Part shown: positions 1 to 64,000 of the stretch, piece by piece
Numbering within the stretch: the stretch's first letter is position 1
Layout: each line of letters begins with the position of its first letter
Source: Candidatus Saccharimonadales bacterium
GTDB taxonomy: Bacteria > Patescibacteriota > Saccharimonadia > Saccharimonadales > EFPC-124
Direction of reading: 5' to 3'
Assembly (NCBI GenBank): GCA_035710125.1
Contig: DASTDY010000070.1
Span: 25,396 to 89,395 of the forward strand
Length of the DNA: 64,000 bases
Notes under the pieces: generated by a model
The model's input: the letters and a program-made list of their open reading frames with translations, nothing else
What the model was told of the DNA's origin: nothing
Database searches by the model: none
Translations under genes and position numbers: made by a program

Positions 1-292
1 CAATGCCGTAAAAATACTTGGCGCCAATTATTGACCCAACGAGCGAATCTGGCACCACGTGCACAGACACCACTTTTTTGCCTGACCCAAATAAAAGATG
101 TAGCAAACCGTAAGGGCCAAATGTTTGGATATGTGTAATATCGGCACCGCGACGGAACTTATTTACGATTACATCTGTATCTGGTTGCGCACGCAAGGCG
201 TGTGTCATTTCTTCGAATGCGGTATGTACGCCATGACCCTGTACCGTAAAAACGCTTTCAGAGATCATGTTGATTTTAAGTTTTCGACTCAT
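1..292 (-). CDS. Partial CDS: N-terminus of a glycosyltransferase (GT4/GT1-like), start codon at 292-290, continues beyond window start
   Basis: Minus-strand translation from ATG at 292: MSRKLKINMISESVFTVQGHGVHTAFEEMTHALR..., typical N-terminus of GT-B glycosyltransferases (HG motif). The ORF is open to the window edge. Confidence 0.4.
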   Translation of the reverse strand, partial: MSRKLKINMISESVFTVQGHGVHTAFEEMTHALRAQPDTDVIVNKFRRGADITHIQTFGPYGLLHLLFGSGKKVVSVHVVPDSLVGSIIGAKYFYGI

Positions 293-382
293 AACTAGAG
301 GTATTGTAGCAGATAATCACGAAACAACCGCCTACCCCCAAGGATTTCTCCAAAAAGAGCAGGCGGTCGTTCGACCAAAAAA

Positions 383-1150
383 CTAGCCACGTGGCAGGCA
401 ACCTGCAGCTCCTTGCCACCACTCGCTGAGCGGTCGCTGGAGCAGGGGCCAGCCATTGCTGATATGCACGCAAATCGTGTCTGGACGGGGCATCGTGTTG
501 TCGAGCACCACGCACACCACCCAACCCACAATGCCGCCGAGCGCCACCAGACGCATCACCATATGCCAGGCTCGCCACGGGGCTTCAACCAAGGCAGGCA
601 ACACCAGGGCGAACAGCGCGTAGCCGTACGTAGGCAGGATCAGCGTGTGATACACCTTGGTGGGGCTAAAAAACGCCCCCCAGGTCATGATGTTCGACTG
701 TCCCTGCATTGAGTAGGTGACAATGGCCTCAGGGATTGTCAGGCCCAACAGGCACGCCACACCAAAGCCGACTGCCAACCAACGGAACCAGCGACGCTGA
801 TACCACTGGTTCTCGCCGTGGAGCTCTTTGGCCAGCATGCTGGCCGCAAACCAGGTGAATCCCAAAAGCAGATCACCAGGCAAGAGTCCCAGGTACTGTT
901 GGCTCAGGTTGACCGATCGACCCTCGACAAGCAACGCCAGAGCCAACAGGCCAACCGGAGTCGCCAACCAACCTATGTAGGGCTGGATTTTCGAGGAGTC
1001 AAAGGTCCAACGCAAGCCAGGGACAATCCGCAGTTGAATCCTCGGAAAGTCAAAAGCCCAACGAAGGCCAGGGACAATCCGCAGCTGCTGCGCCAACATC
1101 TGGCACCTCTTTCGGATCGAACGAACACTTCTTCCGTAACGGAATAGCAA
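383..1150 (-). CDS. Hypothetical polytopic membrane protein, high GC; N-terminal boundary uncertain
   Basis: Long minus ORF with several hydrophobic segments (VGLLALALLV, LAVGFGVACLLGL, LILPTYGYALFALVLPAL, LVALGGIVGWVVCVVL). GC is clearly higher than neighbouring core genes. Contains the duplicated peptide RIQLRIVPGLRW. Confidence 0.4.
   Translation of the reverse strand: MLFRYGRSVRSIRKRCQMLAQQLRIVPGLRWAFDFPRIQLRIVPGLRWTFDSSKIQPYIGWLATPVGLLALALLVEGRSVNLSQQYLGLLPGDLLLGFTWFAASMLAKELHGENQWYQRRWFRWLAVGFGVACLLGLTIPEAIVTYSMQGQSNIMTWGAFFSPTKVYHTLILPTYGYALFALVLPALVEAPWRAWHMVMRLVALGGIVGWVVCVVLDNTMPRPDTICVHISNGWPLLQRPLSEWWQGAAGCLPRG
1006..1084. repeat. Imperfect tandem direct repeat (~52 bp period) inside the membrane-protein ORF
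   Basis: ccaacgcaagccagggacaatccgcag (1006-1032) is repeated as ccaacgaaggccagggacaatccgcag (1058-1084). Encodes the duplicated RIQLRIVPGLRW(A/T)FD peptide. Confidence 0.6.
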
Positions 1151-1244
1151 AAAAGATTATAACATAATTGTCTTCAAAAAGCGAATAGCCGCCCGCTCTC
1201 CCACTGGTGTAGTGGGGAGCGGACGGCTTATCCGACCTTGAGAG

Positions 1245-2564
1245 TTACTTCTTGACCCAGGGCGGGTCAACCCAGCCAGCCGGCTTGGAGTTCTCGTTGC
1301 CCTGGGTGGGCGCCGAGGTCTCCTCGCCGGTCATCCACGGCGGCAGCGGCAGGCTCGACTGCGGCTGCACGATGTGAGGCTGGGTGCCGGTGTCGACCGG
1401 CTGCCTGTCGGCGATCCACGGGGGGACAGCCAACGGGCGGTTCTGCGGTGCGACGGACGGCTGGTCGGGTCCACGCCCGAAAGTCGGACGCTGGACGCCG
1501 CCATCGAACGGAAGCGGTTTCACGAGCACCTCGCCGTCCTGCTGACGGACACGCACGACCTGAGTCGCATCGGAGTCGCGCTTGCTGTCGTCCACCACGC
1601 ACTCCGGCTTGGCTTTCACGAACGTCTGCTTCTTCGGCACCCAACGGGCGTGGCTGAAGCTGTTGTAGTACTTGTACCACTTCCAGACGAACAGCTTGTC
1701 ACGCTTGCCCGCAACCAGCAGACCCAGGAACACCTGAAGCTTGGGGAGCCACCCGTTGTAGGGGTGTACCAGGCTCAGGTCGACCTTGCGGCCACCGTTG
1801 CCTGCCTTGTAGTCCTTGCGTTCCTTGTTGTCCTTGATCACGGAGTTGACGAACCAGACGAACAGGCCGACTGCCATGACGCAGATCAGCTGAGCCGCCA
1901 GCACCTTCTTGCCGACGCTGTAGTCGCCCAGAATGCCGTGCGTCAGTTCCACCGTCGTTGCCGACACGATGACCACCGTGAGGTAGGTCACCAGGAGGAT
2001 CAGTGCGGTGTGCACCAGCGAGGTAGGGCTGAGCTGCTGACCGATGGTGTAGACACCCTCGTCGTTCAGCGACTTCCGCTTGGCCCACCTCATGGTGTGG
2101 TTCTTCGGACGACCCCACGCCCACGTGCGGGCCAGGGTGAAGAAGATCTCCGTTCCCTTGAGCAGCAACATCAACGCGACGCCGAGGCCCCAGCCGATGT
2201 TGTGCAGCCACGCCTCCTGGTACCACATGCCAGTTGTGTCCGGCAGGAGGATGAGGGTGGCGATGGTTCCCGCGGTGAGGGCGATGCCCACGCCGATGTC
2301 ACCGTACTTCAGTCCCTTGTACTGCGCGCTGTAGGGGATCCAGCGGTTCTCCAGGAGGAGTCCCGTGGTCCACATGAGCACGAAGGTGTAGATGAAGCCG
2401 GCGAACAGGGTGGTGAACGGCGTTGTCCACGTTGGCCAGATCTCGTAGAAGAATCTCGCCCACGGGTACAGGTTCAGCTTGTCGGGAAACGACGTGACGT
2501 CGATGTTCATGTGCACCTCTCGGGAAAAATGGTCGGATGGTGCGCCAGGCGGCGACACCAACAT
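1245..2564 (-). CDS. Hypothetical integral membrane protein with Pro-rich C-terminal tail, high GC; likely true start near 2513 (MNIDVTSF...)
   Basis: Minus ORF of 439 aa with multiple TM-like segments (FTTLFAGFIYTFVLMWTTGLLL, IGVGIALTAGTIATLILL, LVHTALILLVTYLTVVIV, LICVMAVGLFVWFV). The C-terminus is P/Q-rich. The overlapping plus-strand ORF 1374-2597 is R-rich junk typical of antisense in GC-rich DNA. Confidence 0.5.
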   Translation of the reverse strand: MLVSPPGAPSDHFSREVHMNIDVTSFPDKLNLYPWARFFYEIWPTWTTPFTTLFAGFIYTFVLMWTTGLLLENRWIPYSAQYKGLKYGDIGVGIALTAGTIATLILLPDTTGMWYQEAWLHNIGWGLGVALMLLLKGTEIFFTLARTWAWGRPKNHTMRWAKRKSLNDEGVYTIGQQLSPTSLVHTALILLVTYLTVVIVSATTVELTHGILGDYSVGKKVLAAQLICVMAVGLFVWFVNSVIKDNKERKDYKAGNGGRKVDLSLVHPYNGWLPKLQVFLGLLVAGKRDKLFVWKWYKYYNSFSHARWVPKKQTFVKAKPECVVDDSKRDSDATQVVRVRQQDGEVLVKPLPFDGGVQRPTFGRGPDQPSVAPQNRPLAVPPWIADRQPVDTGTQPHIVQPQSSLPLPPWMTGEETSAPTQGNENSKPAGWVDPPWVKK

Positions 2565-2636
2565 TATTTTACTATATTACATAACTATTGTCAATAGTAC
2601 CACCCCTGTTCGTTTTGGGTTACAATAAAGGCCAGT

Positions 2637-5368: not shown

Positions 5369-5926
5369 ATGGACACCGGGGATTCCCTGTACTCCATTCC
5401 GCTGCTGGGTGCAACCTACAGCGTGTCCGTAGGCCGTGAGAGCGCTAGTCTGGTGCTCGCCCAGGCCATCGAATCGCAAACAGCAAGCATCAGGCATCGT
5501 CTGCCGGCGCGTCCCCACACTCTCTACGGAGGTGAGATCATCGACGGCAAAGAAGATGACGATGGCTTCTTGGCTGACATCAGACTGACGAGGCCGTTTG
5601 AGAGGTCCTCGCTCACCTCACACTTCGACGCGAGCCTGGTGCTGCAGACTGATGGGCAGCGGTACTTCCAGCTGACAACCAGAGCTCCACACAAAAAGGT
5701 GAGCCTGCGCGTCAGCTTCCCGCCCGAAGACGTCCCTACGTGGGTTGGCTTTGCCACCTGGGAGTCAGCCACACCAGAAGGCGCGCTGCTGACATGTGAT
5801 TACGAGTTGGAACGCAAAGAAGACGTTTCCGACGAGGATCACCCCAAGCCGGTTGTGAAGTTCCACAAGAAACTGACAGATGTCGCACCCGGCATCTACG
5901 GTTTCTTGTGGAGCTACTGCAGCTAG
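5369..5926 (+). CDS. Hypothetical protein, high-GC islet
   Basis: 185-aa ORF with no recognisable motifs. About 62% GC against ~48% in flanks. Followed by a GC hairpin. Confidence 0.4.
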   Translation: MDTGDSLYSIPLLGATYSVSVGRESASLVLAQAIESQTASIRHRLPARPHTLYGGEIIDGKEDDDGFLADIRLTRPFERSSLTSHFDASLVLQTDGQRYFQLTTRAPHKKVSLRVSFPPEDVPTWVGFATWESATPEGALLTCDYELERKEDVSDEDHPKPVVKFHKKLTDVAPGIYGFLWSYCS

Positions 5927-5940
5927 AACGTGTGTCGGAA

Positions 5941-5967
5941 CCACCCGGGCCTCGTCGGCCCGGGTGG
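5941..5967 (+). terminator. Perfect 11-bp stem hairpin (ccacccgggcc tcgtc ggcccgggtgg), candidate terminator
   Basis: Inverted repeat read directly from sequence, 14 nt after the stop of the 5369-5926 ORF. Downstream sequence (cgcccgcTTGTTTAT) is only moderately T-rich. Confidence 0.45.
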
Positions 5968-6132
5968 TCGCCCGCTTGTTTATAAAAATTTCGTGGCTAC
6001 CGCCCAACAAATTAGAAAGCATACGTACCCAAACAGGGGTAATGCAGCGATGAGGATGCCGCAGATTCACACGGTAGTCAGTAAAATCACACACCAAAGA
6101 AAGATGGCAGTATCAAAACTGCCATCTTTCTT

Positions 6133-6219
6133 TGGTGGGCGAGGTGGGACTTGAACCCACACGATATTGCTACCACAGGATTTTGAGTCCAGCGCGTCTA
6201 CCAATTCCGCCACTCGCCC
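6133..6219 (-). tRNA. tRNA-Leu (anticodon CAA), class II with long variable arm, CCA encoded
   Basis: Reverse complement GGGCGAGTGGCGGAATTGGTAGACGCGCTGGACTCAAAATCCTG...GTGGGTTCAAGTCCCACCTCGCCCACCA. The acceptor 7 bp pairs, the anticodon loop is CTCAAAA (CAA), and the T-arm is GTGGG/TTCAAGT/CCCAC. Confidence 0.85.
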
Positions 6220-10232: not shown

Positions 10233-10892
10233 TTAGGCGTCCACCAGCTGGGACTGGGCCTTAGCAACGTCCTGTGGGAACATGGCCTTGGCTTTGTCCT
10301 GGCCAGGTTCCCAGAGTAGTTCCACGCATGATCGGTTGCGATCAGGGGGGCTGTCGTTGCTGAACTCACGAACGATCCGCAGTTGCAGTTCGCCGAGTTG
10401 AATCTGGCGCACCGCGTCGGGCTCGAGAAGACGACAGCACAAAGGCTCTTGTGACCCCTGCAAGAACACCTGCAGCTCGGCGGGGCTCTTGCCCTGCATG
10501 TCGAACATGCACACCTTGAGTTCAAACCCTGCAGCACTCGAACGGTAGAAGCGAACGACGGCCTTCAGACCATCTACCACCTCATTTGCCGACCAGTGCT
10601 GCTGGCCGAACAGGTGATGTGCATATAGCCGGTGGCGCAACAGCATGGCGCACATCGCTGCCGACACAACAAAGCCGGCGGCGCATACACCAAACAGCTG
10701 CCACGACCAAACCGAGGCCGACACCCTGTACACGAGCCAAACGCAGCCCGCTCCGATCAGGACTGCTACCAGAGGCACGTACAGCGACGTGTACTTGGTG
10801 GATCCTGGCTTTCCGGACAACCGGATTGCCAACGACACCAGTACGGGACACGCCACGCACAAACCAATGGCGGCCAAAACCTGGGCGAACAT
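10233..10892 (-). CDS. Hypothetical membrane protein, high-GC islet (start set at MFAQVLAAIG; the longer ORF extension to 11150 overlaps the gltX 5' end and is rejected)
   Basis: Two or three N-terminal TM segments (VLAAIGLCVACPVLVSLAI, LVAVLIGAGCVWLVY, LFGVCAAGFVVSAAMCAML) followed by a soluble domain. About 62% GC. Confidence 0.4.
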   Translation of the reverse strand: MFAQVLAAIGLCVACPVLVSLAIRLSGKPGSTKYTSLYVPLVAVLIGAGCVWLVYRVSASVWSWQLFGVCAAGFVVSAAMCAMLLRHRLYAHHLFGQQHWSANEVVDGLKAVVRFYRSSAAGFELKVCMFDMQGKSPAELQVFLQGSQEPLCCRLLEPDAVRQIQLGELQLRIVREFSNDSPPDRNRSCVELLWEPGQDKAKAMFPQDVAKAQSQLVDA

Positions 10893-10989
10893 GAGTTCCT
10901 TCCCGCTAGATAGATGGACTGCTCCAGCCATTAAACCGCACGCTCGCGACTTGCACAAGTGCAAATTTCGCGCCATACTAGACCAGATC

Positions 10990-12405
10990 ATGAACGTACG
11001 AACACGCTTTGCCCCAAGCCCTACAGGCGCGCTCCACAGTGGTGTGGTGCGGACCGCACTTTTTTCGTGGCTCCTTGCCCGTAAACATGGCGGCCAATTT
11101 TTACTCCGTATAGAAGACACCGACCAAAAACGTGAAATCCAAGGCGGCACGCAAAATATTATCGATAGCTTGCGCTGGATCGGCCTTACATGGGACGAAG
11201 GCCCAGAAGTAGGCGGCCCGTTTGCACCGTATATACAATCGCAGCGCCTAGAAATTTATAAAAAATACGCACAAGAACTCGTAGCTAAAGGCCTTGCTTA
11301 CGCCGACCCCTACACACCAGCCGAACTACAAGCCCTCCGCGAACAAGCCCAAGCCGCAAAACGCCCATTTTTGTACCGCGACCACCGCCCAAAGAACCCG
11401 CCTGTGTGGGATGGTTCCCAGGCGCTACGTATTAAATTAGAGCCTAAATCATGGGAATGGAACGACGCCGTCATGGGCACAGTAAAAATGGGCCCAGAAA
11501 TGATAGACGACTTTATAATCATAAAGGCCGACGGGTTCCCAACGTACAACTTTTGCCACATTATAGATGACCACATTATGGGCATAACCCACGTGCTCCG
11601 TAGCCAAGAGTTTATAAGCTCTGTGCCAAAATTTTTAGCGGCACACGAAGTATTAGGCCTAAAACCGCCAATCAACGCCATTTTGCCGCCAATCATGGAC
11701 GACACTGGCAAACGCAAGCTGAGCAAGCGCCACGGCGCAAAGCCATTGCTTGCATACCGCGACATGGGTATTTTACCCAGTGCTATGATTAATTTTTTGG
11801 CAACAATTGGCTGGAACGACGGTACAGAGCAAGAGGTCTACAGCATTGAAGAACTTATCCAAAAATTCGACCTATCGCGTGTGCAAAAAAGCGGCGGTCG
11901 GTTTGATGAGCAACGGCTTTTGTACCTAAATGGCGTACACATTCGTAACTTAACCCCCGACCAGCTATACAAGCATGTAACTGGTTTTTGGCCAGATGCC
12001 GCAAACGACACACCTGAAGGTTACAAAAAAGCCGTGCTCTCGCTGGTACATGAACGACTTAAGTTCTTTGCTGAGCTGCCCCAATTGACCGATTTTTTCT
12101 TTACCGAGCCGCAGCTGCATGAAGGGCTCTTTGAATCCAACAAACAACTCAAGAAGCTTTCAGCCCAAGAACGCAAAACTATGATAGCGGCAGTAATTGA
12201 AGCCGTGCAAGACAACGACTTTACGATAGAGAGTTTAGAGGCTACGCTTCGCCCGCTGGTAGAAACGCTCAACACCAAAACCGGCGTATTGTTTGGACTA
12301 ATCCGCGCCATAATTACCGGCAGTAGTATAGCGCCAGGCTTGTTTGAAACCATGCATGTACTTGGTAAAGAAAAAGTTCTGGCCCGTCTTAAAAAAGCCT
12401 TGTAA
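10990..12405 (+). CDS. gltX: Glutamate--tRNA ligase
   Basis: RFAPSPTGALHSG (HIGH-class motif) at the N-terminus and the class I catalytic core. Start taken at ATG 10990 (MNVRTRFAPSPTG); the upstream in-frame extension from 10645 has no homology-like features. Confidence 0.9.
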   Translation: MNVRTRFAPSPTGALHSGVVRTALFSWLLARKHGGQFLLRIEDTDQKREIQGGTQNIIDSLRWIGLTWDEGPEVGGPFAPYIQSQRLEIYKKYAQELVAKGLAYADPYTPAELQALREQAQAAKRPFLYRDHRPKNPPVWDGSQALRIKLEPKSWEWNDAVMGTVKMGPEMIDDFIIIKADGFPTYNFCHIIDDHIMGITHVLRSQEFISSVPKFLAAHEVLGLKPPINAILPPIMDDTGKRKLSKRHGAKPLLAYRDMGILPSAMINFLATIGWNDGTEQEVYSIEELIQKFDLSRVQKSGGRFDEQRLLYLNGVHIRNLTPDQLYKHVTGFWPDAANDTPEGYKKAVLSLVHERLKFFAELPQLTDFFFTEPQLHEGLFESNKQLKKLSAQERKTMIAAVIEAVQDNDFTIESLEATLRPLVETLNTKTGVLFGLIRAIITGSSIAPGLFETMHVLGKEKVLARLKKAL

Positions 12406-12413
12406 AAGCGAAA

Positions 12414-12484: not shown

Positions 12485-12886
12485 TCAGCCCTGCGGGTGC
12501 CGGGCTGCCAGCTTGTGGTGTCGGTGGCTGTAGACGAACGCGAACGTGTTGATCTGCTGTGTGGATGCCTTCTCGGCGATCTCGGCGAGCACGAGCTTCA
12601 TGTAGTCGGGCGCTGTGGCCCACTCACGGAGCATGCGCCAGAACGCGATCGCAGCGGCTTCCAGCAGCGGAAGCACCACCCGACCCAGCAGCATCGCCTG
12701 AACCATGAGGTAGTAGATTGTGGCTCTCAGGTCCCAGTTGTCTCCGTCGAGCGTGCGCCACAGTGACAGCGCAGCGAACAGAGCGAGCGGGTAGAAACCG
12801 GACGAGCGAGCCTTCAGTGCCTTGGAAAAAGCCGTGGACATCTCACACTCCTCTAACAGGTCGTATCCGGAATTATATAATACCAT
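12485..12886 (-). CDS. Hypothetical protein, high-GC islet (true start possibly at MSTAFSK)
   Basis: 133-aa ORF at about 62% GC. Hydrophobic middle segment (FYPLALFAALSLW, LMVQAMLLGRVVLPLL). No motif recognised. Confidence 0.35.
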   Translation of the reverse strand: MVLYNSGYDLLEECEMSTAFSKALKARSSGFYPLALFAALSLWRTLDGDNWDLRATIYYLMVQAMLLGRVVLPLLEAAAIAFWRMLREWATAPDYMKLVLAEIAEKASTQQINTFAFVYSHRHHKLAARHPQG

Positions 12887-34623: not shown

Positions 34624-34683
34624 ATAAAAGAGGGCCCCAGAAGGGGCGCAGACAGAGTTCGTCTGACAGCCTCTTTTGGGGCG

Positions 34684-36763: not shown

Positions 36764-36905
36764 AAAACCCCCTAAAGGTGCAAGGAACGTATGCTACTGT
36801 ACCACAATTTTAGTGCTGCTGCTGTAGTCTGCCTAAAGCGGCGAAAATCGTCGCATTAGGCAGACCCCAGAGCCTCACACAGCGGGTGTGAGGCTCTGGT
36901 TGTGG

Positions 36906-38036: not shown

Positions 38037-38282
38037 AGCCGGTTTTCAAAAGCCTAAGCCTTTGCCAACCAAGTCTTGCTGCACTTTGCTTATGCCAATT
38101 ATCGGTTTGACAGGGTGGAATTATATAATATATCGAATAAAAATACAATAGTAATTAAGTGAGGTAACTATTAACGAGCATCCAACAATCCTTAGTGCCA
38201 AATACTCAGATTGACACATTTTTTAAATTATTTTAAAGTAAAAAAGACAACCCGTTTTCGATGCCTTATTTAGGAGGCGCAC

Positions 38283-50107: not shown

Positions 50108-50608
50108 ATGTCGCAGCATGCAGCAATTGTCCACGTCGCTCTTTTTGATGCCCGCGAAGGCCAGGGGTTAACCCTGGACCGGCACGGCCTTCGCCCAAAG
50201 GCGCTGTTACCAGCATTCCGTCAGGTGAGTTGGCGGCACAAATTGCCGCTGAGCGAAAGCCGCACCCTCCGCCGCTACAACACAGATTGCGTGACAGTCC
50301 GGCTGTTAATCTGGCCCTGGACTGTGATGGTGACGGACCACGACGGGCAAGAGGTAGCCATGCCGCTCCAGCCAGAGCTGGCGAAAAACACGCCACTCTT
50401 GCAGGCAATGTTTTTGCAGGCACAAATGACATCTATCCCGAACCTGGCCAGAGAGGAGCTCGAGGTTCACACTGCACAACTGCACCAGCACCTTACACGC
50501 AGCTCACGTTTAGCTGGCTCAAAGCCACGACTGCCAGACCTACCTGGCCCTGGCCTCATTGACGAGCTGCGTGTGGTCCTTACGGACCAGTTCGAAAGGT
50601 TGGACTAA
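50108..50608 (+). CDS. Hypothetical protein, high-GC islet
   Basis: 166-aa ORF at about 62% GC. No motif recognised. Confidence 0.35.
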   Translation: MSQHAAIVHVALFDAREGQGLTLDRHGLRPKALLPAFRQVSWRHKLPLSESRTLRRYNTDCVTVRLLIWPWTVMVTDHDGQEVAMPLQPELAKNTPLLQAMFLQAQMTSIPNLAREELEVHTAQLHQHLTRSSRLAGSKPRLPDLPGPGLIDELRVVLTDQFERLD

Positions 50609-52170: not shown

Positions 52171-53031
52171 ATGCACTACTCGACAGGAAAGGGACACATC
52201 CCCGTGTTCACGCGTAAGGGAGTGCGTCGCGCACTCGCCACGCTGACGCTGGCGGCAGTCGCCAGCCTCTCAGCAGCACCGATTGCCAATGCCGACCCGA
52301 CCACCAACGACACCGTCACGGCCACCGAGATCGCGGCCGCGCTGACCAAGGCCGACGCGCAGAACTCGGCGACCATCGCCGCGCCCGTGGCGTCCACAGC
52401 GGACGCCGACTCGGCCGCGCAGACACTCACCATCGACGTCCCCAAGGACGCCGACGCGGGCGTCAGCATGAAGTCGACCGACGGCCTGCCCACCCTCACG
52501 GTGGACCTGCCCAACGCCGACAACGCAGCCAACGCCACGCGCCTGCCGGACGGCACGGTGGTGTACCCGTCGAACGACGGCTCGGCCAACGCCGTGATCG
52601 CCGCCGAGGGCGACAGCGCACAGATGATCACGACCATCGCCAACAACGGCGCGCCGACGCACTACGAGTACGGCCTGAAGGTGGCCGGTGGCAGCAACGT
52701 GGTTCTGATGGAGAGCGGCGGCGCCCTGGTGAACGACACCAACGGCAACACGCTGCGGGCCGTGCCGGCTCCGTGGGCGCGTGACGCCAAGGGCGCGACC
52801 GTCCCCTCGCACTACGCGACCAACAACGGCGCGCTCACCCTGGTGGTCGACCACACCAGCGGCAACTACGCGTACCCCATCGTGGCTGACCCCATCTGGA
52901 TCCCGGCCTACCTGGTCTGGCGCATCATCAAGTGCGGCGGCTCGGGCGCGCTGGCGTGGATCACCGCGGGTGGCTTCAACTGGTGGCAGCGCCTGCTCAT
53001 CTCGGTGGGCGCGTGCGTGTTCTCGCTGTAG
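52171..53031 (+). CDS. Hypothetical secreted protein, very high GC (~68%); probable GTG start near 52204 with signal peptide ...ALATLTLAAVASLSAAPIANA/DP
   Basis: Actinobacteria-like signal peptide and A/T/D/G/N-rich mature region. C-terminal hydrophobic/Trp-rich segment (IWIPAYLVWRIIKCGGSGALAWITAGGFNWW). The antisense ORF 52270-53037 is R/G junk. Confidence 0.45.
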   Translation: MHYSTGKGHIPVFTRKGVRRALATLTLAAVASLSAAPIANADPTTNDTVTATEIAAALTKADAQNSATIAAPVASTADADSAAQTLTIDVPKDADAGVSMKSTDGLPTLTVDLPNADNAANATRLPDGTVVYPSNDGSANAVIAAEGDSAQMITTIANNGAPTHYEYGLKVAGGSNVVLMESGGALVNDTNGNTLRAVPAPWARDAKGATVPSHYATNNGALTLVVDHTSGNYAYPIVADPIWIPAYLVWRIIKCGGSGALAWITAGGFNWWQRLLISVGACVFSL

Positions 53032-53065
53032 CCACAACGGCTACATGCAAGTAGGTGCATGAACG

Positions 53066-53362
53066 GTGGGCGTCATTCTTCGGAATGGCGTCCCACCGCG
53101 TGTACATGATATAGTAACCAAAAATAAGGGTGTAAAAATGATAGAAATTCTAATAACCGCAACAATTTTTATTGGCATTATCTTGTTCTTCATTAAACAA
53201 AAAACCGCCGCGTACGTTATAGGCGGAATCGGATTTGCATGGTTGGCATTTTACCAGCTTACACAGGGCCAAACAGTTGGTTTAATCGCACTAATCTTTA
53301 CCGTTGGCTGCATAGAGCGGCTCATAGATATTTGGCGACCAAAAAAGTCGGCTAAAAAATAA
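53066..53362 (+). CDS. Small two-TM membrane protein (likely true start at ATG 53139, MIEILITATIFIGIILFFI...)
   Basis: AT-rich ORF with two hydrophobic helices and a basic C-terminal end (RPKKSAKK). Confidence 0.4.
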   Translation: MGVILRNGVPPRVHDIVTKNKGVKMIEILITATIFIGIILFFIKQKTAAYVIGGIGFAWLAFYQLTQGQTVGLIALIFTVGCIERLIDIWRPKKSAKK

Positions 53363-53382: not shown

Positions 53383-53413
53383 AAGGCGTCTGCACCAGAA
53401 GTACAGACGCCTT
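53383..53413. terminator. Hairpin aaggcgtctg-N11-cagacgcctt followed by TCTTCGTT; likely bidirectional terminator between convergent genes
   Basis: 10-bp perfect stem, read directly, 20 nt after the 53362 stop and upstream of the stop of the minus gene 53445-54128. Confidence 0.5.
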
Positions 53414-53444: not shown

Positions 53445-54128
53445 TCAGCGCGTGCGGCGTTTCCGCTGACCGGGCTTCAGCCGCTTGGGGCGCTCCTTCT
53501 TGGCCTCCTTGCGGACTGTCTTGGCCTCGGTCTCAGCCGCCACGGCACCTTCTTGCTCAGCGCGCAACCAGAGCTTGGCCCGGTTGAGCCACATGTTCCA
53601 GAGCGTCCAGCCGATCAGCGCGCCAAGACCGTAGTGGGCGATATCCCACCAGTCGAAACCACCAACACCAAGCTCCTCCTTGGAATCGGGGTTCTCTTGC
53701 TTGAGCTTGAAGATGATCGCACCCGCCAGCACTTCGTAGCCAACAGAGACGACAAAGCCGATCAGCGCGCCACGGCGCCACACGCCGCCGTACTGAACTG
53801 CCCGCTCTGCACGCTCAAGTTTTGGCATTGACCGGTCCCAAGAGAACCGGGCAGCCACCCCTCTGCTGAAGATCACGGCAGCGAACAACGGAAACCCGAT
53901 GTCGCCCATGTGCCAACGAACCCACTCAGGACCCACTTGGGCGAACTTCAGCCCTGTGCCCAGGCCGTAGAGCGAAATTGTGACCCAAAAGAGTCTTTCG
54001 AGCCACTCGTACCGACTACGGCCAAGCGAGCGAACTGCCTGCACAACGCAAAAGGCCCCGTGCAGGGCGCTCGCAATCGCAATCACGAGGCCGCCGTAAA
54101 ACCGTATCCAATCCGGAATCAAGTTCAC
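53445..54128 (-). CDS. Hypothetical membrane protein with Lys/Arg-rich C-terminal tail, high-GC islet
   Basis: 227 aa. Four or five TM-like helices, then ...AETEAKTVRKEAKKERPKRLKPGQRKRRTR. Confidence 0.4.
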   Translation of the reverse strand: MNLIPDWIRFYGGLVIAIASALHGAFCVVQAVRSLGRSRYEWLERLFWVTISLYGLGTGLKFAQVGPEWVRWHMGDIGFPLFAAVIFSRGVAARFSWDRSMPKLERAERAVQYGGVWRRGALIGFVVSVGYEVLAGAIIFKLKQENPDSKEELGVGGFDWWDIAHYGLGALIGWTLWNMWLNRAKLWLRAEQEGAVAAETEAKTVRKEAKKERPKRLKPGQRKRRTR

Positions 54129-54234
54129 GATTACTCCTAATTCGCAACGAAGCTAGATAAAACCATACCATAAAAACAATAAAACTACAAGACAAAGCGC
54201 CCTCTTGCAGGGCGCCCGTCTTCACCTTAAAACA

Positions 54235-54717
54235 TCAGCTGCTGATTTGGTTGAACCGGCGCCCCCACAGCCACAGCATGAACGTGCCGTACGCACCACC
54301 CACCACATGGGGGAGGGCAGCAACCGGATCCAGTCCCACGGCCGGCGTCTGCAATGCGTGCAAGGCAAGCGCCAAGGCGCAGCTCACCATGATCGCCGGC
54401 GAGAGCCGAACGAACCGCTTCATCGCGTGGTTGGACGGCAGCCTCCGAGAGAAGCCACACATCAGCAAGAACAGTCCAACTAGCACCGGCGCCGCCACCA
54501 GGGTGGACATGTTCGCATCGCCAACGAACTGCCACAGAGGGCTTGGCTGCCACGACATATCAATTGCCGCTGTTACACTCAACCACAAGGGCAAGGGCAA
54601 CGAGAACAGCCAGACGTACGCCCACGCACGGAACTCGTACGCGAACCACAGCCAGATTGCCACGCCAACCACACCGACCGCAAAGACCGCAGGAGCAAAC
54701 ATCACGTCACACCTCAC
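54235..54717 (-). CDS. Hypothetical polytopic membrane protein, high-GC islet
   Basis: 160 aa, four hydrophobic helices rich in W/L/A/V. Confidence 0.4.
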   Translation of the reverse strand: MRCDVMFAPAVFAVGVVGVAIWLWFAYEFRAWAYVWLFSLPLPLWLSVTAAIDMSWQPSPLWQFVGDANMSTLVAAPVLVGLFLLMCGFSRRLPSNHAMKRFVRLSPAIMVSCALALALHALQTPAVGLDPVAALPHVVGGAYGTFMLWLWGRRFNQISS

Positions 54718-54777
54718 AAAATAGGGTATGATAAAAGGGAAGACCCTAAAACTATACTATAAAATATATTTTTTACA

Positions 54778-55341
54778 ATGAAGCTTATTATTGGACTTGG
54801 TAATATCGGAACACATTTTGAAAAAACCAGACATAACGTTGGATTTATGGCGGTAGATGCGTGGGTACAAGCACACCAGAGTGAATGGCAATCAAAAGAT
54901 AAATTTAAGGCGTTGGTCGCCGAAACGACGTTGCATAACGAAAAAATCATACTTATTAAACCTACAACGTATTACAACTTGTCTGGGGATGCCACACGGC
55001 TAGTGAAAGACTTTTACAAAATAGATACCCAAAATATTTTGGTTGTTCACGACGAGCTTGCGCTCCCGTTTGGAACGGTTCGTATGCGGCAGGGCGGTAG
55101 TGATGCAGGAAACAATGGCATAAAAAGTATCGTGGCCACGATTGGCGCCGACTTTGCTCGCATACGGGTAGGTATTGCAAATGACCTTCTTGCCACACAT
55201 GATGCCGCAGATTTTGTACTCAATCGTTTTACGCCTAGCGAAACCGAGCAATGGCCAACTATCAACCACGAGGTTATGCGACATATAACAGCGTTCGCAG
55301 ACGAATCGCAAACCTTCTTCCCCACGAGTGTCCGGGTATAA
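54778..55341 (+). CDS. pth: Peptidyl-tRNA hydrolase
   Basis: MKLIIGLGNIGTHFEKTRHNVGFMAVD...VVHDELALPFGTVRMRQGGSDAGNNGIKSI carries the conserved Pth catalytic His/Asp context. Confidence 0.85.
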   Translation: MKLIIGLGNIGTHFEKTRHNVGFMAVDAWVQAHQSEWQSKDKFKALVAETTLHNEKIILIKPTTYYNLSGDATRLVKDFYKIDTQNILVVHDELALPFGTVRMRQGGSDAGNNGIKSIVATIGADFARIRVGIANDLLATHDAADFVLNRFTPSETEQWPTINHEVMRHITAFADESQTFFPTSVRV

Positions 55342-55392
55342 AATTAAAGAGAAGGGACACCCGGCTGGGCGCCCCACTCTTCACTGCATGAA

Positions 55393-56001
55393 TCAGGGTG
55401 CGCTGAAATGGAGTTTGTCGACGCGCATGCGGGCCTCGACATAGTTAGAAAACCAGACGTCACCGAAGCGACGCGTAAGTCCTCCGGCCCACAAGCGCTT
55501 TTCGACCTCCCACAACCAGTACGCAACAGCTGTGGCAACCAGGCCTGCGCCCACTCCCCACCAGCTGAACTGAAAAAACGAACTCGTACGAAGCGCCAGG
55601 TTGCTATCGGCAACGATGGCGGCTGTGACCTGGATACCCACAGCCACCAGAACGCCCGTCGCCAGCGTCCCTTGCCGGTAGCGGCAGAATCTTATGCGTA
55701 TAGCGGGATAGTCCTGTGCGCATGATGCCTGCGAAGCTATGTACGTCATACGGCAGACAAAACTTGCCAGCGCCAACGGCAAGCCTGCACTCGCCAGTAT
55801 TGGTGGCGCCCAGGCCATCTCCAGACCAGTCAAGCCAAGGCCCACACCTACGCCAAGACAGTAGGCGAGTGCGGCGTACAGATGGCTGGGCACTTCGGTT
55901 GGTAACCATCTGCGACGTACGGCCTCGAGCAGGCTTCTAGACCCCTCAATCACGCCGGACAGCGCAACACCCCAGCCGATTATCTGGACAATGATGTTCA
56001 C
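55393..56001 (-). CDS. Hypothetical polytopic membrane protein, high-GC islet
   Basis: 202 aa, five or six TM-like helices. Confidence 0.4.
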   Translation of the reverse strand: MNIIVQIIGWGVALSGVIEGSRSLLEAVRRRWLPTEVPSHLYAALAYCLGVGVGLGLTGLEMAWAPPILASAGLPLALASFVCRMTYIASQASCAQDYPAIRIRFCRYRQGTLATGVLVAVGIQVTAAIVADSNLALRTSSFFQFSWWGVGAGLVATAVAYWLWEVEKRLWAGGLTRRFGDVWFSNYVEARMRVDKLHFSAP

Positions 56002-56123
56002 AACACACCTCGATTTCAGGCAATGAAGTCGGAATAATTATATCATCGAGCAAAAAATTATCAACCTCACTTTACAATCCTCAAAAAAGAGCGCCCCCGA
56101 AGAGGCGCCCTTCCTGCACTCAC

Positions 56124-56600
56124 CTACACCCTAGTGAGCTTTTTGGCCGCCCGGCACCACAAGTGCAACAGAGGCAGGCCCACCAGGCATCCAGCTGCGA
56201 TCAGCCAGACATCGAGCCACTTGCCCATGATGGCCAGAGTGACGCCCAGCACCAGTGAACTGAGCACCAGCAAGGCCTGCGCCCAGTGGACGAACTTGAT
56301 CTCTGCCTCGGTGTTCCAGTCTACGAACCAGTCGAAGAGAAGCGCCGTGAGCAGTAGGGCGGACACCTGCATCACCGTGATGGCGGCGATGCAGTACATC
56401 ACACTGGGGTACACGCCAGCGTGCTTCAGCGATTCCGCAGCAGCGGTGATCGGAAGCATGCCTTGGAAGAGGCCAACGTAGCGCGACCTTCCCCCGTGCT
56501 TGAACCCGCGGAAAATCAGCCATCCAGCGACCACCAACAAAACAGCGGCCACAGAGATCAACTCAATGCGCAATACCGACACCTGTCTTCCGGTTGACAT
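56124..56600 (-). CDS. Hypothetical polytopic membrane protein, high-GC islet
   Basis: 158 aa, four TM-like helices. Confidence 0.4.
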   Translation of the reverse strand: MSTGRQVSVLRIELISVAAVLLVVAGWLIFRGFKHGGRSRYVGLFQGMLPITAAAESLKHAGVYPSVMYCIAAITVMQVSALLLTALLFDWFVDWNTEAEIKFVHWAQALLVLSSLVLGVTLAIMGKWLDVWLIAAGCLVGLPLLHLWCRAAKKLTRV

Positions 56601-57983: not shown

Positions 57984-58472
57984 CTACCACTCGATATACC
58001 GGAACTGATTGCAGAGCGGCAAAAAGGCGAGCTGCTTCAAATTAGGCCGCAGCGCCACCACCAGCTCCAACATCCACGACCCGGAAGCCAAAAAGAAGTC
58101 GCAGACCAGAGAAGGGCAGCCAAGGTCGCTCATCTGTAGGTGACCACGCAAGTGTGACACCTGGAGCTGCAAGTCTAGCTCCCAAAGGAACTTTGCATCA
58201 TCTGGCAACCGCTTGCCACTATGCTGAATCGCCAACTGGCTTTGCCACAATTGGCTCAGCGTGGGCGGACAAGAGTACGGCTTATCAAACACAACCTGGG
58301 AGGTCGCGAATTTTGTGCCGCCGAACCAAACCTGCTTGGTTTCGAGCGCCTCGGCCAATGCCAAGTCCCTGCCTGGCCGCAAGTCCGTAAACGTCCGCCG
58401 GATCGACCCGAGAGTCAGCTCTCGAGGGCTGAGCTCTTCCGCCGTGGGTGTTTCCGCCGCTTTGCTTGTCAT
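57984..58472 (-). CDS. Hypothetical protein, high-GC islet
   Basis: 162-aa ORF at about 60% GC. No motif recognised. Confidence 0.35.
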   Translation of the reverse strand: MTSKAAETPTAEELSPRELTLGSIRRTFTDLRPGRDLALAEALETKQVWFGGTKFATSQVVFDKPYSCPPTLSQLWQSQLAIQHSGKRLPDDAKFLWELDLQLQVSHLRGHLQMSDLGCPSLVCDFFLASGSWMLELVVALRPNLKQLAFLPLCNQFRYIEW

Positions 58473-60987: not shown

Positions 60988-61059
60988 AACCTCTTGCTTT
61001 CTCTGTTAAAAAAAGGTAGAACTAATACAAGCTCACTTTAATTTGTGCGTTTAAAATGC

Positions 61060-61850
61060 TAACCCTCCGCCCTGAGCACGGCGGAGGGGTAGACAGCCAG
61101 GCCAACGGCTACCCCGAAGGCTGAACGTCTGGCTGGGGAACGGCGGGGTCAGCGCCTCGCCGTTCCGTAAAACTTGTGCTGGGTAACACCGCCGAACGGA
61201 CATCCCGGCGAGTGCCAGTGCGGGAGCCAGGGCTTTTTTCCTTTCACCTGGCTGGTGTCAGATAGTTTTCTGTCTGCTCCGGCCTAGAGAAGGACAGAGA
61301 GCTATCTGGCATCGAAAAAACTTGTGCTGTGGAGCACCCCTCGTCGTATTCCACAGCACAGCTGCATCAGGTAACTCTTCGGGGGTCGCCTGATGCAGAG
61401 CCAGACAGATGTGGTCCGAACTCACCCCCGGGAACCACCACATCTGTCTGGCACCTAAACCTCGAGGTGTCTTACTCTCCTGAGACATCTCAAGGGTTGC
61501 TTGTGTCCTGTCATGCTGTCCGACGGAAGGCAGGGCATAAGCACTGGTCAGGGGTTCAGCCCTGGCCATTTCACCCCGATGCCGGTCCAAGAGGTATAGG
61601 TTCGGGGTGAAAAGGGGAGTGCGTGAAGGTTTAGGGATCCCGCGCACTTTGGTTCCAACCGCATCAGCGCGAGGTTGGAACTACAGGGGGCGCGCATGTA
61701 AGAGAGATTCGCCATTCCGTGTGGCTTGAGTCTCCGGTGCGCGCCTCCTGCCTCTTAACCAAAGGCTTGGGCTATCCACCTCCTCGAGGGTAGTCCAAAT
61801 AGGGCCCCCTCTCTGGTAGATCACACTGCCAGAGAGGGGCGCCCCTCTAA
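61060..61850 (+). ncRNA. Candidate large structured ncRNA, copy A (family unassigned)
   Basis: ORF-free, hairpin-dense region. Landmarks: cttgtgctg (61321), agccagacagatgtgg-loop-ccacatctgtctgg hairpin (61399-61453), tcctgcctcttaa (61746). Terminal hairpins ccctctctgg/ccagagaggg and gagggg cg cccctc (61807-61847). Several helices contain G-T pairs only on the plus strand. Confidence 0.35.
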
Positions 61851-61989
61851 CTTGTAACGTTATTCTTATTAGAAGATCTTGACTTACACGGTCGAGAAAA
61901 GGTAGAAATAGTATCAGCGCAACCGCTATGTTCAACCTTAAGTTGGCATTGCTGGCGGCACAAAACGCAGGCGAACTCCACAGCTGCCC

Positions 61990-62560
61990 GAAAGTTCGGC
62001 TCCGGTGACGAAAGACTTCAGACTTGCACTTAGCCTAGTCTTTGGGAACCGCCGGGTAAGGCGTCTGGGCGCCGAAAGCTTGTGCTGCGACACCTTGCGC
62101 TGTCTGCAGCACATATACATCGGCGCCGACGGGTTCCGATGTAGCCAGACAGATGTGGCGCCCACTCCTGGCACCCCCCACATCTGTCTGGCCCAAAAAC
62201 CTCCCGAGTGCTCAAGAGCACACTCGGAGGTGCTTGTGTAGGATCCGGACCTGTCGGCGGACACTTCACAAGCATGTGACCAGGGAACACCACTCCTTGG
62301 TTACAAACACACCTCGTTATGCTCAAGATAGCTGGGTAACGAAGTGTGGGGGAGTACGCGGACTCTGGCGTACTATGACTCTGCCTGGCAGGGCAGAGCC
62401 TCAGGGACGCGCGTCAGTGAGATTCGCTGCACCGTGAATGCAGCTCGAGTCCTGACGCGCGTTCCTGCCTCTTAAATCGGACTGCACGATAAGTCCAAAA
62501 CCATTGCATAGGATCCCATTCGGTTATTTCATACCAGAAAGGGGATCCTTTTTCATTGCT
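61990..62560 (+). ncRNA. Candidate large structured ncRNA, copy B (diverged tandem paralogue of copy A), ending in an intrinsic-terminator-like hairpin + T-run
   Basis: The same landmarks are collinear with copy A at a ~745-bp offset: cttgtgctg (62079), agccagacagatgtgg hairpin (62143-62195), tcctgcctcttaa (62463). Helices corresponding to copy A show compensatory changes, for example tgtgctgtgg/ccacagcaca vs tgtgctgc/gcagcaca, and catcagg/cctgatg vs catcgg/ccgatg. Terminal hairpin aggatccc-N24-gggatcct + TTTTT (62510-62554). Confidence 0.35.
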
Positions 62561-62656
62561 CGAGCGCCTACTAATCCATGTTATCCACTGTTTAAAAGTC
62601 TCACAGCAGAGACTATCTTGTACGCCAAGAAAATGCTATAATAGATTAATAAATTG

Positions 62657-62685: not shown

Positions 62686-62732
62686 AATATTAACATTTTG
62701 TAAAATGATGATGAGGAAGGCTTAATTAGACT

Positions 62733-63776
62733 ATGAACGACACTGCCGAAGCCGTCGTTACCCTAAATCTGCAAACTGCTGTCAAGGACATATTGGCAAC
62801 TGTTGAACGTGAGCGCGAGCGCGAAATTATCGCCCGGCGCTTTGGTTTGTATGATCGAAAGGAAACACTCGAACAAATCGGTGAACTCTTAGGTATCACC
62901 CGCGAGCGTGTTCGCCAACTAGAAAAGGCGATTATGATTCGCCTTAAGATTGCCGCCGAAGACAATCTTCCTCACATTGCAAATATCGAAAAACACTTTA
63001 TTCGCCACCTGCACGACCTTGGCCGTGTCGCCAAAGTACACGACCTCGCCAAACGAGCCGGTAACGACACGAGCGACCGCACCAAGGCCCATGTTGCCTT
63101 CTTAGCTGAAATCGCCCCACGCCTTGCCGTGGTAGACGAAAACGACCACTACCACCATGCGGTAGGCATAAAAGAGCACCACAGCGAAGCAGACATTAAA
63201 AAACATGTCGACACCATTGTAAGTACCGTAAAAAAACACGGTGAGCCTATTAGCATTGAAGAGCTTCATGCTAAAGTAGACCATGACCACCCTAGCCACG
63301 TGCGTGCGCTTGCAAGCGTCAGCAAAGAGCTAGCAAGCCTTAAAGACCGTTGGGGGCTTAGCCGCTGGCCAACCGTGAACCCTAAAAACATCCGCGACAA
63401 AATTTACGTGATTTTGCAAGAAAACGGCAAACCGCTGCACTTTAGTGATATTGCCAAGGCTATTAAGGCTTCCGATTTCCGCCGCAAAGATGTTACCACC
63501 CAAGCAATCCACAACGAACTGATTAAAGATGGTCGTTTTGTGTTGATTGGCCGAGGCATATACGCGCTTAAAGATTGGGGCTACAACAAGGGAACCGTTG
63601 CCGATATTATTATCGACATCTTAAACAAAGAGGGCGGCCCCTTGCACCGTGACGAAATCGTAAAACGCGTACTAAAACACCGCCAAGTTAAAGAAACAAC
63701 CATTCTTCTAAACTTGCAGGGCAAACAACGCTTTAAGCGAGTCGCCAAGGCAACCTACGCACTGGTTGAAAGCTAA
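62733..63776 (+). CDS. Predicted transcription factor with unusual architecture: N-terminal sigma-70 region-4 HTH + two C-terminal HARE-HTH domains
   Basis: REREREIIARRFGLYDRKETLEQIGELLGITRERVRQLEKAIMIRLK is a textbook sigma70_r4. KPLHFSDIAKAIKASDF...TTQAIHNELIKDGRFVLIGRGIYALKDWG and GPLHRDEIVKRVLKH...ETTILLNLQGKQRFKRVAKATYALVE both match the HARE-HTH pattern known from the RNAP delta subunit (phF.eIa.......tp.atl...l..D.RFv.vgRGlY.LkeW). Confidence 0.6.
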   Translation: MNDTAEAVVTLNLQTAVKDILATVEREREREIIARRFGLYDRKETLEQIGELLGITRERVRQLEKAIMIRLKIAAEDNLPHIANIEKHFIRHLHDLGRVAKVHDLAKRAGNDTSDRTKAHVAFLAEIAPRLAVVDENDHYHHAVGIKEHHSEADIKKHVDTIVSTVKKHGEPISIEELHAKVDHDHPSHVRALASVSKELASLKDRWGLSRWPTVNPKNIRDKIYVILQENGKPLHFSDIAKAIKASDFRRKDVTTQAIHNELIKDGRFVLIGRGIYALKDWGYNKGTVADIIIDILNKEGGPLHRDEIVKRVLKHRQVKETTILLNLQGKQRFKRVAKATYALVES

Positions 63777-63803
63777 AAAAACTTGAGCCATTCTGGCACC
63801 CTC

Positions 63804-63850
63804 AAGCCGCCACCTCTGGCCTGACTTTTGCAGGATAGAGGTGGCGGCTT
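63804..63850 (+). terminator. 14-bp inverted repeat aagccgccacctct-N19-agaggtggcggctt after the regulator gene; T-run follows at ~63865
   Basis: Perfect 14-bp stem, read directly, 28 nt after the stop. The TTTTT run is 15 nt downstream of the stem rather than adjacent. Confidence 0.4.
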
Positions 63851-64000
63851 GGGGCAGTCGGCACTTTTTACATCAAAAACTAAACAGAGAGGGCAAAATT
63901 ACCCCAACTGTAGTTTGCAACTACAGCGTATTTGCGGGACAATAGTATAAAGCAATGGACGTGCTATCTTTTCTATTTAGCTTGCTTGGCAAGTGGTACA

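Follow-up and report, generated by a model that had tools for sequence, protein, structure and literature searches.

The DNA analysed here (the window) is a stretch of 64 kb with a GC content of 51.3%, taken from a soil Saccharimonadales genome (contig DASTDY010000070.1 of assembly GCA_035710125.1). It carries conserved core genes, between which short GC-rich islets of orphan genes are interspersed; these islets are the subject of the present analysis. The TopA of the window is 85%, 83% and 76% identical to that of soil metagenome-assembled genomes (MAGs) labelled Candidatus Saccharimonadales, Saccharimonas and Saccharibacteria. The housekeeping genes named in an earlier note on this DNA are confirmed by Pfam, which finds SmpB, Exo_endo_phos (an Xth-type nuclease), GltX, Der/EngA, Pth, DprA and TopA, and the kinases mentioned there belong to two histidine kinase/response regulator pairs. 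Pfam also detects surface genes of the Saccharibacterial type (sortase, PEGA, DUF3048 and large Ig/Kelch proteins). Saccharibacteria and other candidate phyla radiation (CPR) members live attached to bacterial hosts, and their accessory genes are for the most part uncharacterised; three proteins of the window are on record at NCBI, as hypothetical proteins.

Seventeen open reading frames (ORFs) differ from the core genes in their GC content at third codon positions (GC3; GC1 and GC2 for the first and second). They are given here with their length in amino acids (aa) and, where present, transmembrane (TM) helices:

383-1099, minus strand: islet ORF, 238 aa, about 4 TM helices, GC3 0.72.
1245-2510, minus strand: islet ORF VFO38_05835, 421 aa, 5 TM helices and a Pro-rich tail, GC3 0.88.
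5369-5926, plus strand: islet ORF, soluble, 185 aa, GC3 0.70; a 12-bp GC hairpin follows at 5940-5968.
10233-10892, minus strand: islet ORF, 219 aa, 3 TM helices, GC3 0.72, flanked by a DUF4367-like gene and gltX.
12485-12841, minus strand: islet ORF, 118 aa, GC3 0.81, between gltX and the DUF3048 gene.
16030-16773, plus strand: islet ORF, 247 aa, GC3 0.79, directly after a histidine kinase/response regulator pair.
34684-35064, minus strand: islet ORF, 126 aa, coiled-coil-like, GC3 0.82.
36906-37985, minus strand: islet ORF VFO38_06005, 359 aa, soluble, mostly helical, GC3 0.84.
38283-38882, plus strand: islet ORF, 199 aa, 6 TM helices, GC3 0.74.
45966-46379, plus strand: islet ORF, 137 aa, GC3 0.68.
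50108-50608, plus strand: islet ORF, 166 aa, GC3 0.65, flanked by the pseudouridine synthase gene and der.
52171-53031, plus strand: putative closticin-574-like/DUF2599-related secreted bacteriocin precursor VFO38_06080, GC3 0.92.
53445-54128, minus strand: islet ORF, 227 aa, membrane protein, GC3 0.73, terminator-like hairpin at 53383-53413.
54235-54717, minus strand: islet ORF, 160 aa, 3 TM helices, GC3 0.78, terminator-like sequence at 54195-54217, promoter-like sequence at 54751-54778.
55393-56001, minus strand: islet ORF, 202 aa, 3 TM helices, GC3 0.65, terminator-like sequence at 55354-55375, promoter-like sequence at 56037-56064 (match at 11/12 positions).
56124-56600, minus strand: islet ORF, 158 aa, 4 TM helices, GC3 0.78.
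57984-58472, minus strand: islet ORF, 162 aa, GC3 0.72, between dprA and topA.

Three further entries are referred to below:

35248-36078 and 36071-36763, minus strand: two orphan ORFs, 276 and 230 aa, GC3 0.56 and 0.57.
53138-53362, plus strand: small protein with 2 TM helices, 74 aa, GC3 about 0.39.
60988-62600, plus strand: non-coding GC-rich islet, two diverged tandem copies (about 68% identity) of a long-hairpin array.

The earlier note had missed the ORF at 45966-46379, and its list needed correction in places. The long ORF 10233-11150 on the minus strand contains a real gene at about 10233-10892, the remainder being gltX antisense. From the island it had drawn at 34684-38036, 34684-35064 and 36906-37985 are indeed GC3-rich; the two ORFs in 35248-36763 are not compositionally distinct, since their GC3 is so low. 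As claimed, the products are frequently polytopic membrane or secreted proteins: those of the polytopic membrane type make up about half, and there are also one secreted protein and several helical or coiled-coil ones. Long antisense ORFs also accompany the islets as described, e.g. 1374-2597 (plus), 37038-37937 (plus) and 52270-53037 (minus). Of the proposed start signals, GTG starts occur in 5/19 islet ORFs and a Shine-Dalgarno-like motif in 12/19 islets against 6/39 core genes (whose start codons were left unrefined). Consensus scans place terminator-like hairpins directly after the ORFs starting at 53445, 54235, 55393, 5369 and 16030 and promoter-like sites before those at 55393 and 54235, at counts not far above those in shuffled sequence.

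The mosaic base composition reported earlier is real. The standard deviation of GC in 300-bp windows is 0.060 against a binomial expectation of 0.029, and the 400-bp profile spans 0.37 to 0.705. The 17 interleaved ORFs (together about 10.9 kb or 17% of the window) have a GC3 of 0.65-0.92, a GC1 of about 0.62 and a GC2 of about 0.44, and they lie between core genes with a GC3 of about 0.50 (39 ORFs: mean 0.497, standard deviation 0.054, maximum 0.58). The change of composition falls at most a few bases from the start and stop codons. Codon usage differs sharply between islets and core: AAC 0.94 against 0.60, ATC 0.67 against 0.23, AAG 0.74 against 0.30 and TTA 0.02 against 0.14. Islets and core are separated by a dinucleotide distance delta* of 196, whereas random core subsets differ by 31 ± 10. 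At codon junctions the islets show ratios of 0.43 (T|A), 0.99 (T|C), 0.84 (G|A) and 1.18 (G|C); in core genes these are 1.19, 0.41, 0.59 and 1.74, and in high-GC ORFs 0.33, 1.27, 1.06 and 1.05. Islet GC1, however, is 0.62 against 0.69 in high-GC ORFs of equal GC3 (p = 0.004): GC1 and GC2 are closer to native values than GC3 predicts, which is the reverse of an amelioration trajectory.

Several simple causes of the signal were rejected. Translational selection for optimal codons does not fit, as G-ending codons are enriched as well as C-ending ones (EF-Tu, GroEL, S2 and L2 were sought in related loci for an optimal-codon comparison; none is present there). An effect of amino-acid composition was discarded for the islets because the signal sits in GC3, and long perfect hairpins within islet ORFs because these are seen only at gene ends and in the region of 61-62.6 kb. 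The predicted folding of islet mRNAs is more stable than that of synonymous-codon permutations (mean z -1.9, with four ORFs below -4; ORF 10233-10892 was left out of this test); the mean z of core genes, in comparison, is -0.1 (p = 0.001) and that of genuine high-GC ORFs -0.6 (p = 0.02).

Two side observations concern composition outside the islets. The core genome strongly avoids TC/GA (symmetrised rho 0.68) and over-represents GC and AA/TT, a signature that the islets lack; native ORFs of related contigs show a weaker TC/GA avoidance (about 0.8). This core signature could result from cytosine deamination in TC context or from motif avoidance. In addition, the response regulator 48351-49313 carries a low-complexity C-terminal extension of about 200 aa (48700-49313) that is not conserved in relatives. 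It is GC-rich because of its amino-acid composition rather than its codon choice: GC1 is 0.71, GC2 0.54 and GC3, which is normal, 0.48.

The orphan status claimed for these genes is borne out. None of 19 islet ORFs matches Pfam, and PHROGs, with which 10 proteins were compared (nine islet ORFs and the small 2-TM protein), gives no match either. Against 5.8 billion proteins, 1245-2510 and 36906-37985 match only themselves. When the concatenated islet proteins were aligned with tblastn to 50,697 phage and 72,556 plasmid records, only the bacteriocin gave matches, apart from a gltX antisense artefact. Scans of IMG/VR yielded nothing for 53445-54128 or 5369-5926, and one distant locus with a profile of the toxin. 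A profile search of the PDB gave no match. AlphaFold2 confidence (predicted local distance difference test, pLDDT) is low at 52 for the toxin and 43 for 36906-37985, so that these models are too poor for fold searches. The islets are also mutually unrelated in sequence, except that 383-1099 is a distant paralogue of 1245-2510 (26% identity, E 4e-9). As a detail, the 5' part of ORF 383-1150 (minus) holds a 51-bp tandem duplication (984-1085, 78% identity) that encodes a repeated peptide LRIVPGLRW(A/T)FD.

Comparison with relatives shows that the islets occupy junctions of an otherwise conserved gene order (L-numbers are labels of comparison loci or contigs). The order histidine kinase, response regulator, rluB (pseudouridine synthase), der, pth, dprA, topA and a sigma-like gene is kept in 8 related loci, and tblastn of the islet proteins against these 8 loci gives zero matches. 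The der-pth gap measures 2,718 bp in the window against 61 (L002), 40 (L019) and 43 bp (L010). Similarly, the gap between the pseudouridine synthase gene and der, which holds 50108-50608 in the window, is 95-185 bp in L003, L019 and L010, and the dprA-topA gap, which holds 57984-58472, is 68-177 bp in the same three; the remaining core-gene gaps vary likewise in size. Thus islets are present or absent among relatives, with some junctions as tight as 40-185 bp. L004, L006 and L008 have GC-rich ORFs of their own in equivalent gaps (GC3 up to 0.92), unrelated to those of the window. In L081, a more distant syntenic relative (Xth 76% and GltX 54% identical), the gltX-DUF3048 gap is filled by yet another, unrelated GC3-rich ORF (0.76). 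Given this variation in gap size and the unrelated GC-rich ORFs at matching gaps, the junctions are conserved places where genes are gained and replaced. The earlier note had also considered an intrinsic feature of the genome, for which codon usage should be native-like and many relatives should share the islets at syntenic positions; in fact they are not native-like, nor are they shared. L173, an independent Logan assembly, matches 36831-38307, i.e. islet 36906-37985 with its low-GC flank, at 99.8%, and the islet architecture recurs in the unrelated metagenomes L081, L083, L086, L089, L093, L096, L097, L104 and L175.

Two islet families could be traced, and their homologues are confined to mid-GC, Saccharibacteria-like contigs, where they are GC3-rich as well. 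The first is that of ORF 16030-16773, which has three real homologues among 1.84 billion representative proteins. Two of these, in L086 and L175, immediately follow the same response regulator as the window gene does, and the family was found only beside this Saccharibacterial gene. Between the window and these two contigs the response regulator is 91-97% identical, whereas the family members (one or two paralogues, GC3 0.68-0.79) are about 30% identical to the window protein. The position of this locus is therefore fixed, while its alleles are hypervariable and uniformly GC3-rich.

The second family is that of 52171-53031. Its product of 286 aa has a hydrophobic N-terminus (signal peptide) ending in ANA-DP and, after a conserved ADP motif, a conserved C-terminal hydrophobic Cys-containing peptide (WIPAYLVWRIIKCGG...CVFSL). 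Tblastn aligns it with a 'putative closticin' from Paenibacillus phage BN12 (E 7e-11), with small plasmids of Bacillus cereus (E 2e-12) and of Clostridium, and also with plasmids of Streptomyces, Clavibacter and Rhodococcus. Remoter relatives carry PF10783 (DUF2599); the window protein itself has no Pfam match at E<=0.01. Pre-proteins of the closticin-574 family measure about 300 aa, start with a signal peptide and carry the mature peptide at the C-terminus, and a closticin-like protein of Bacillus was inactive in vitro (PMC10888436). The window gene resembles closticin 574-type precursors in its length, signal peptide, C-terminal hydrophobic peptide and the small TM gene that follows, and differs in the missing Pfam match and in the GC3 of toxin and partner, which are 0.5 apart. 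Judged by these features 52171-53031 is a putative closticin-574-like bacteriocin precursor, and 53138-53362 probably encodes its immunity protein.

Scanning metagenomes for this family returned 80 loci. Copies in high-GC contigs have a GC content equal to or below the local one, and copies in mid-GC contigs have a GC3 of 0.48-0.95. All but four of the mid-GC copies form one clade (neighbour-joining bootstrap 97%) that includes 0/25 copies with a high-GC background; one mid-GC copy, L168, groups with the high-GC copies. GC3-rich mid-GC copies are 45-88% identical to other mid-GC copies against 30-39% to any high-GC copy. Conserved fourfold-degenerate sites share the same base at a frequency of 0.41-0.55, where 0.34-0.44 is expected, which is near saturation. 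Since sharing is close to chance and GC3 is still 0.7-0.95, synonymous sites have turned over without GC3 losing its high level. Other GC3-rich ORFs are present at loci whose toxin is GC3-rich; where the toxin is GC3-normal there are none.

The small 2-TM partner behaves differently. It is 51% identical between the window and L089 (E 5e-22), where the toxins are 53% identical, and despite this co-divergence its GC3 is 0.39-0.45 in the window, L089 and L104. In L093, L096 and L097, small TM genes analogous to it have a GC3 of 0.36-0.55. When L089 and L104 are compared, the toxin DNA is 96% identical and the partner 92%, against 76% for the downstream backbone, so the module has been exchanged between diverged genomes.

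Some further details of this module deserve mention. GC3 falls from about 0.9 to about 0.4 within some 100 nt between the bacteriocin-like gene and its partner (regions 53032-53362 in the window, 2667-2963 in L089 and 6742-6983 in L104), and the spacer contains a hairpin, ggtgggcgtcattcttcggaatggcgtcccacc. The homologous pair of toxin and small TM gene is also found as a two-gene islet in the actinobacterial contigs L092 (6001-7057) and L087 (6001-7216), the latter assigned to Microbacterium via a neighbouring gene and the former with a WhiA/RbpA context. There the islet is lower in GC than its genome (GC3 0.65-0.73 against about 0.88).

One GC-rich islet contains no gene. The 'ncRNA region' (non-coding RNA) that had been proposed at 61040-62570 is a GC-rich hairpin array and not an ORF: it shows no coding periodicity, with a flat GC by codon position (0.59/0.54/0.55). 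It matches no known RNA family, as Rfam gives nothing at gathering score for 61.0-62.6 kb (the sole match at E<=1 is sR19, E 0.57). The 851 nt of 61030-61880 on the plus strand fold into about 16 consecutive long hairpins (-460 kcal/mol, z = -16), and the minus strand folds less well. Both copies of the array have hairpins in common, with some compensatory changes. The gap downstream of topA is comparably structured in L001 (3260-3940), L004 (12265-13110) and L005 (2130-2550), with z from -11 to -16, although blastn and nhmmer detect no sequence homology between the arrays of different genomes.

How did the islets arise? We give an about even chance to the reading that they form an accessory gene pool, confined to Saccharibacteria and rapidly exchanged, with persistently GC-rich codons. 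Each islet would be a lineage-specific accessory gene, inserted as one apparently self-contained transcription unit at a conserved core-gene junction, and coding for an orphan membrane, secreted or coiled-coil protein. The turnover of such a pool, and its exchange within the Saccharibacteria, would far outpace the divergence of the core; the probable route of exchange is natural transformation, with recombination in the conserved flanks. High GC3 would then be a lasting hallmark of this gene class in certain lineages, and not the fading trace of a recent transfer from sampled Actinobacteria. Under transfer one would look for closer homologues in high-GC genomes, an equal composition of co-transferred genes and the fastest decay at GC3. 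As none of these is seen, the accessory pool is favoured; what holds for the two traceable families may extend to all islets.

A number of points weigh against this reading. No mechanism is known to hold GC3 at 0.9 in selected genes of bacteria beside others at 0.4. The continuum of GC3 from 0.48 to 0.95 within the bacteriocin clade is also expected of an amelioration series, the 16030 family taken alone is compatible with partial amelioration from an ancestral GC3 of about 0.9, and the codon-junction context of the islets is akin to that of high-GC bacteria, as expected of DNA from a high-GC donor. Islet mRNAs exceed true high-GC ORFs in structure by a modest margin (z -1.9 against -0.6). Deep homology searches cover 3 islets, and a word-based search misses relatives below roughly 35% identity. 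The bacteriocin tree was built by neighbour-joining on long branches. Among the mid-GC contigs L081 alone is syntenic with the window, the others being judged Saccharibacteria-like by GC and gene content.

Possible, though in our view rather doubtful, is classical repeated transfer: the islets would be recent and independent captures from a high-GC donor, most plausibly the actinobacterial host, integrated as fragments by illegitimate recombination between core genes and now at varied stages of amelioration. Saccharibacteria are naturally competent epibionts of Actinobacteria (PMC10633639), a lifestyle that counts in favour of this explanation as it does of the accessory pool. In GC3, codon usage and dinucleotide context the islets are like high-GC bacteria, which speaks for it too, as do the sharp boundaries of apparently self-contained units, their absence from relatives with tight junctions and the GC3 continuum of the bacteriocins. 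Moreover, copies of the bacteriocin family are common in high-GC contigs, and two such contigs are assigned to Microbacterium via neighbouring genes (another has a WhiA/RbpA context), and L168 sits among the high-GC copies. Against it, no actinobacterial homologue of 1245-2510 or 36906-37985 appears in the 5.8 billion proteins, the 16030 family is tied to its Saccharibacterial response regulator, and the searches with these islets and the bacteriocin reveal no donor lineage with closer homologues than the relatives of the recipient. The identities and the clade of the bacteriocins point the same way. Further, GC3 is still near 0.9 at saturated synonymous sites, the co-diverged partner gene is at 0.4, GC1 and GC2 lag behind GC3 (the opposite of Lawrence-Ochman amelioration), and the toxin module of Actinobacteria is itself lower in GC than its genome. 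Repeated acquisition, one of the options of the earlier note, thus survives as lineage-specific and junction-specific gain and turnover, and is not supported as a direct, recent origin of the traceable families from a high-GC host.

If the accessory pool is real, some force would have to hold its GC3 high. Selection might act on the structure or stability of the mRNA, repair at recombination hotspots might be GC-biased, or a high-GC reservoir might exist that is as yet unsampled; the stable folding of islet mRNAs gives a hint of the cause. A stronger version, which we put forward as tentative and unlikely rather than likely, is that in some soil Saccharibacteria an active gene-specific force keeps a whole class of fast-evolving accessory genes (for attack, immunity and surface proteins) at a GC3 of about 0.8-0.9 in a genome with a GC3 of 0.5. 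This force might be selection for GC-rich, structured and long-lived mRNAs, GC-biased repair at hotspots or a targeted AT-to-GC hypermutation, the last of which would also drive the hypervariability of the islets. The hairpin arrays after topA would then be a non-coding product of the same process.

Very unlikely, by comparison, is de novo gene birth, in which GC-rich and hairpin-rich non-coding inserts such as that at 61.0-62.6 kb spawn new genes at the junctions. Long ORFs would arise because GC-rich DNA has few stop codons, and this would explain the orphan status. It fits that a non-coding hairpin array fills one junction of the window, with comparable structure at that place in relatives, that islet mRNAs are more structured than synonymous shuffles, and that the islets are extreme ORFans. 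Nonetheless, the islet ORFs have a strong three-base periodicity with GC3 far above GC2, unlike random GC-rich DNA or the hairpin region; their proteins have coherent TM helices and signal peptides, and the bacteriocin family is old and widespread.

Tiny mobile inserts, another earlier option, are less probable again. Small autonomous or mobilisable elements (cassettes, or MITE-like or integron-like units, MITE being a miniature inverted-repeat transposable element) that insert themselves between genes would account for one gene per intergenic site and for the movement of the toxin module between diverged backbones. The islets, however, share neither terminal direct or inverted repeats nor attC-like sites and are unrelated in sequence; the Pfam scan of 58 ORFs shows no integrase or transposase, the 10 proteins compared with PHROGs are without match, and phages and plasmids matched the bacteriocin only. 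Two tRNAs lie near two islets, without repeats.

Finally, chimerism, i.e. high-GC reads of other organisms stitched into a Saccharibacterial contig during assembly or binning, has a next to negligible chance: the source is a short-read soil metagenome assembly and several Saccharibacterial contigs in public MAGs bear wrong taxon labels, but at the level of assemblies at least 17 inserts with complete ORFs and terminator-like sites fit exactly into the intergenic gaps between intact syntenic genes on one contig, L173 reproduces 36906-37985 together with its low-GC flank, and many unrelated assemblies show the same pattern.

Elements of this picture are already known, namely islands of atypical GC, morons, ORFans and bacteriocin modules. 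Phage morons are reportedly extra genes between genes that are adjacent in relatives, with their own promoter and terminator and a distinct composition (a concept ascribed to Juhala and Hendrix). The islets are likewise single genes inserted between genes adjacent in relatives and unlike their neighbours in composition; in contrast to morons they lie among housekeeping genes of a cellular CPR chromosome with no phage genes nearby, there are many of them per 64 kb, and they are GC-rich where morons are arbitrary in composition. Lawrence and Ochman (1997) are said to have described horizontally acquired islands in which an atypical composition ameliorates. With such genomic islands the islets share atypical GC3 and codon usage, presence and absence in relatives and a range of deviation. 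They differ in being single-gene, without a boundary of tRNA, integrase or repeats and without an identifiable donor, and in a GC3 that deviates beyond GC1 and GC2, persists through saturation and adjoins a co-inherited low-GC gene. O-antigen and capsule clusters of enterobacteria have a fixed position between conserved flanks and divergent alleles with a shared atypical composition; they are AT-rich, multi-gene and biosynthetic. The islets also have fixed positions, very divergent alleles and a common atypical composition, but are GC-rich single orphan genes at many separate loci. Bacterial ORFans, according to what Daubin and Ochman (2004) are said to have found, are short, lineage-restricted and subject to fast turnover, and typically AT-rich relative to the genome; the islets are equally short, lineage-restricted and without homologues, yet strongly GC-rich. 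Literature searches returned no description of GC-rich orphan islets in Saccharibacteria, and none of the combination of many single-gene GC-rich orphan units at conserved CPR junctions, a composition that withstands saturation and a discordant co-inherited neighbour.

These results suggest that about 17% of the window sequence can be recognised as accessory repertoire by composition alone, at fixed junctions of a syntenic genome. As the islets include membrane and secreted proteins and a bacteriocin-like toxin, they are prime candidates for factors of host interaction and competition. If their GC-rich codons are indeed maintained, atypical GC would no longer be proof of recent horizontal transfer, and an undescribed selective or mutational process would act on synonymous sites in bacteria. 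If genes flow from host to epibiont instead, the single-gene junction pattern would be a marker of host range and DNA uptake in this uncultured group.

Some observations outside the islets remain to be reported. Contigs with a TopA 44-69% identical to that of the window (L010, L012, L034, L042, L043, L049 and L053) carry the MAG labels Acidoferrum, Dormiibacterota, Vicingus and Gammaproteobacteria, and one of them, L010, also has the core gene order of the window. These labels probably reflect mis-binning or mislabelling of CPR contigs. Directly next to the GC-rich cluster of 34.7-38.9 kb lies a low-GC segment (32800-34650, 0.37-0.43) with a Methyltransf_33 (EgtD-like) gene and a 97-aa ORF with a GC3 of 0.33. 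The Methyltransf_33 protein is 55% identical to its counterpart in L081, where the gene is also flanked by a GC3-rich ORF. Near a GH10 xylanase gene, 17228-19237 (minus) codes for a pectate-lyase-fold protein with an endosialidase N-terminal extension and 26084-26479 (minus) for a separate protein with a Peptidase_S74 'chaperone of endosialidase' domain, tailspike-like parts in a cellular context. At 6087-6142, a near-perfect inverted repeat of 20-25 bp extends over the 3' end of tRNA-Leu(CAA), which is located at 6133-6219 on the minus strand.

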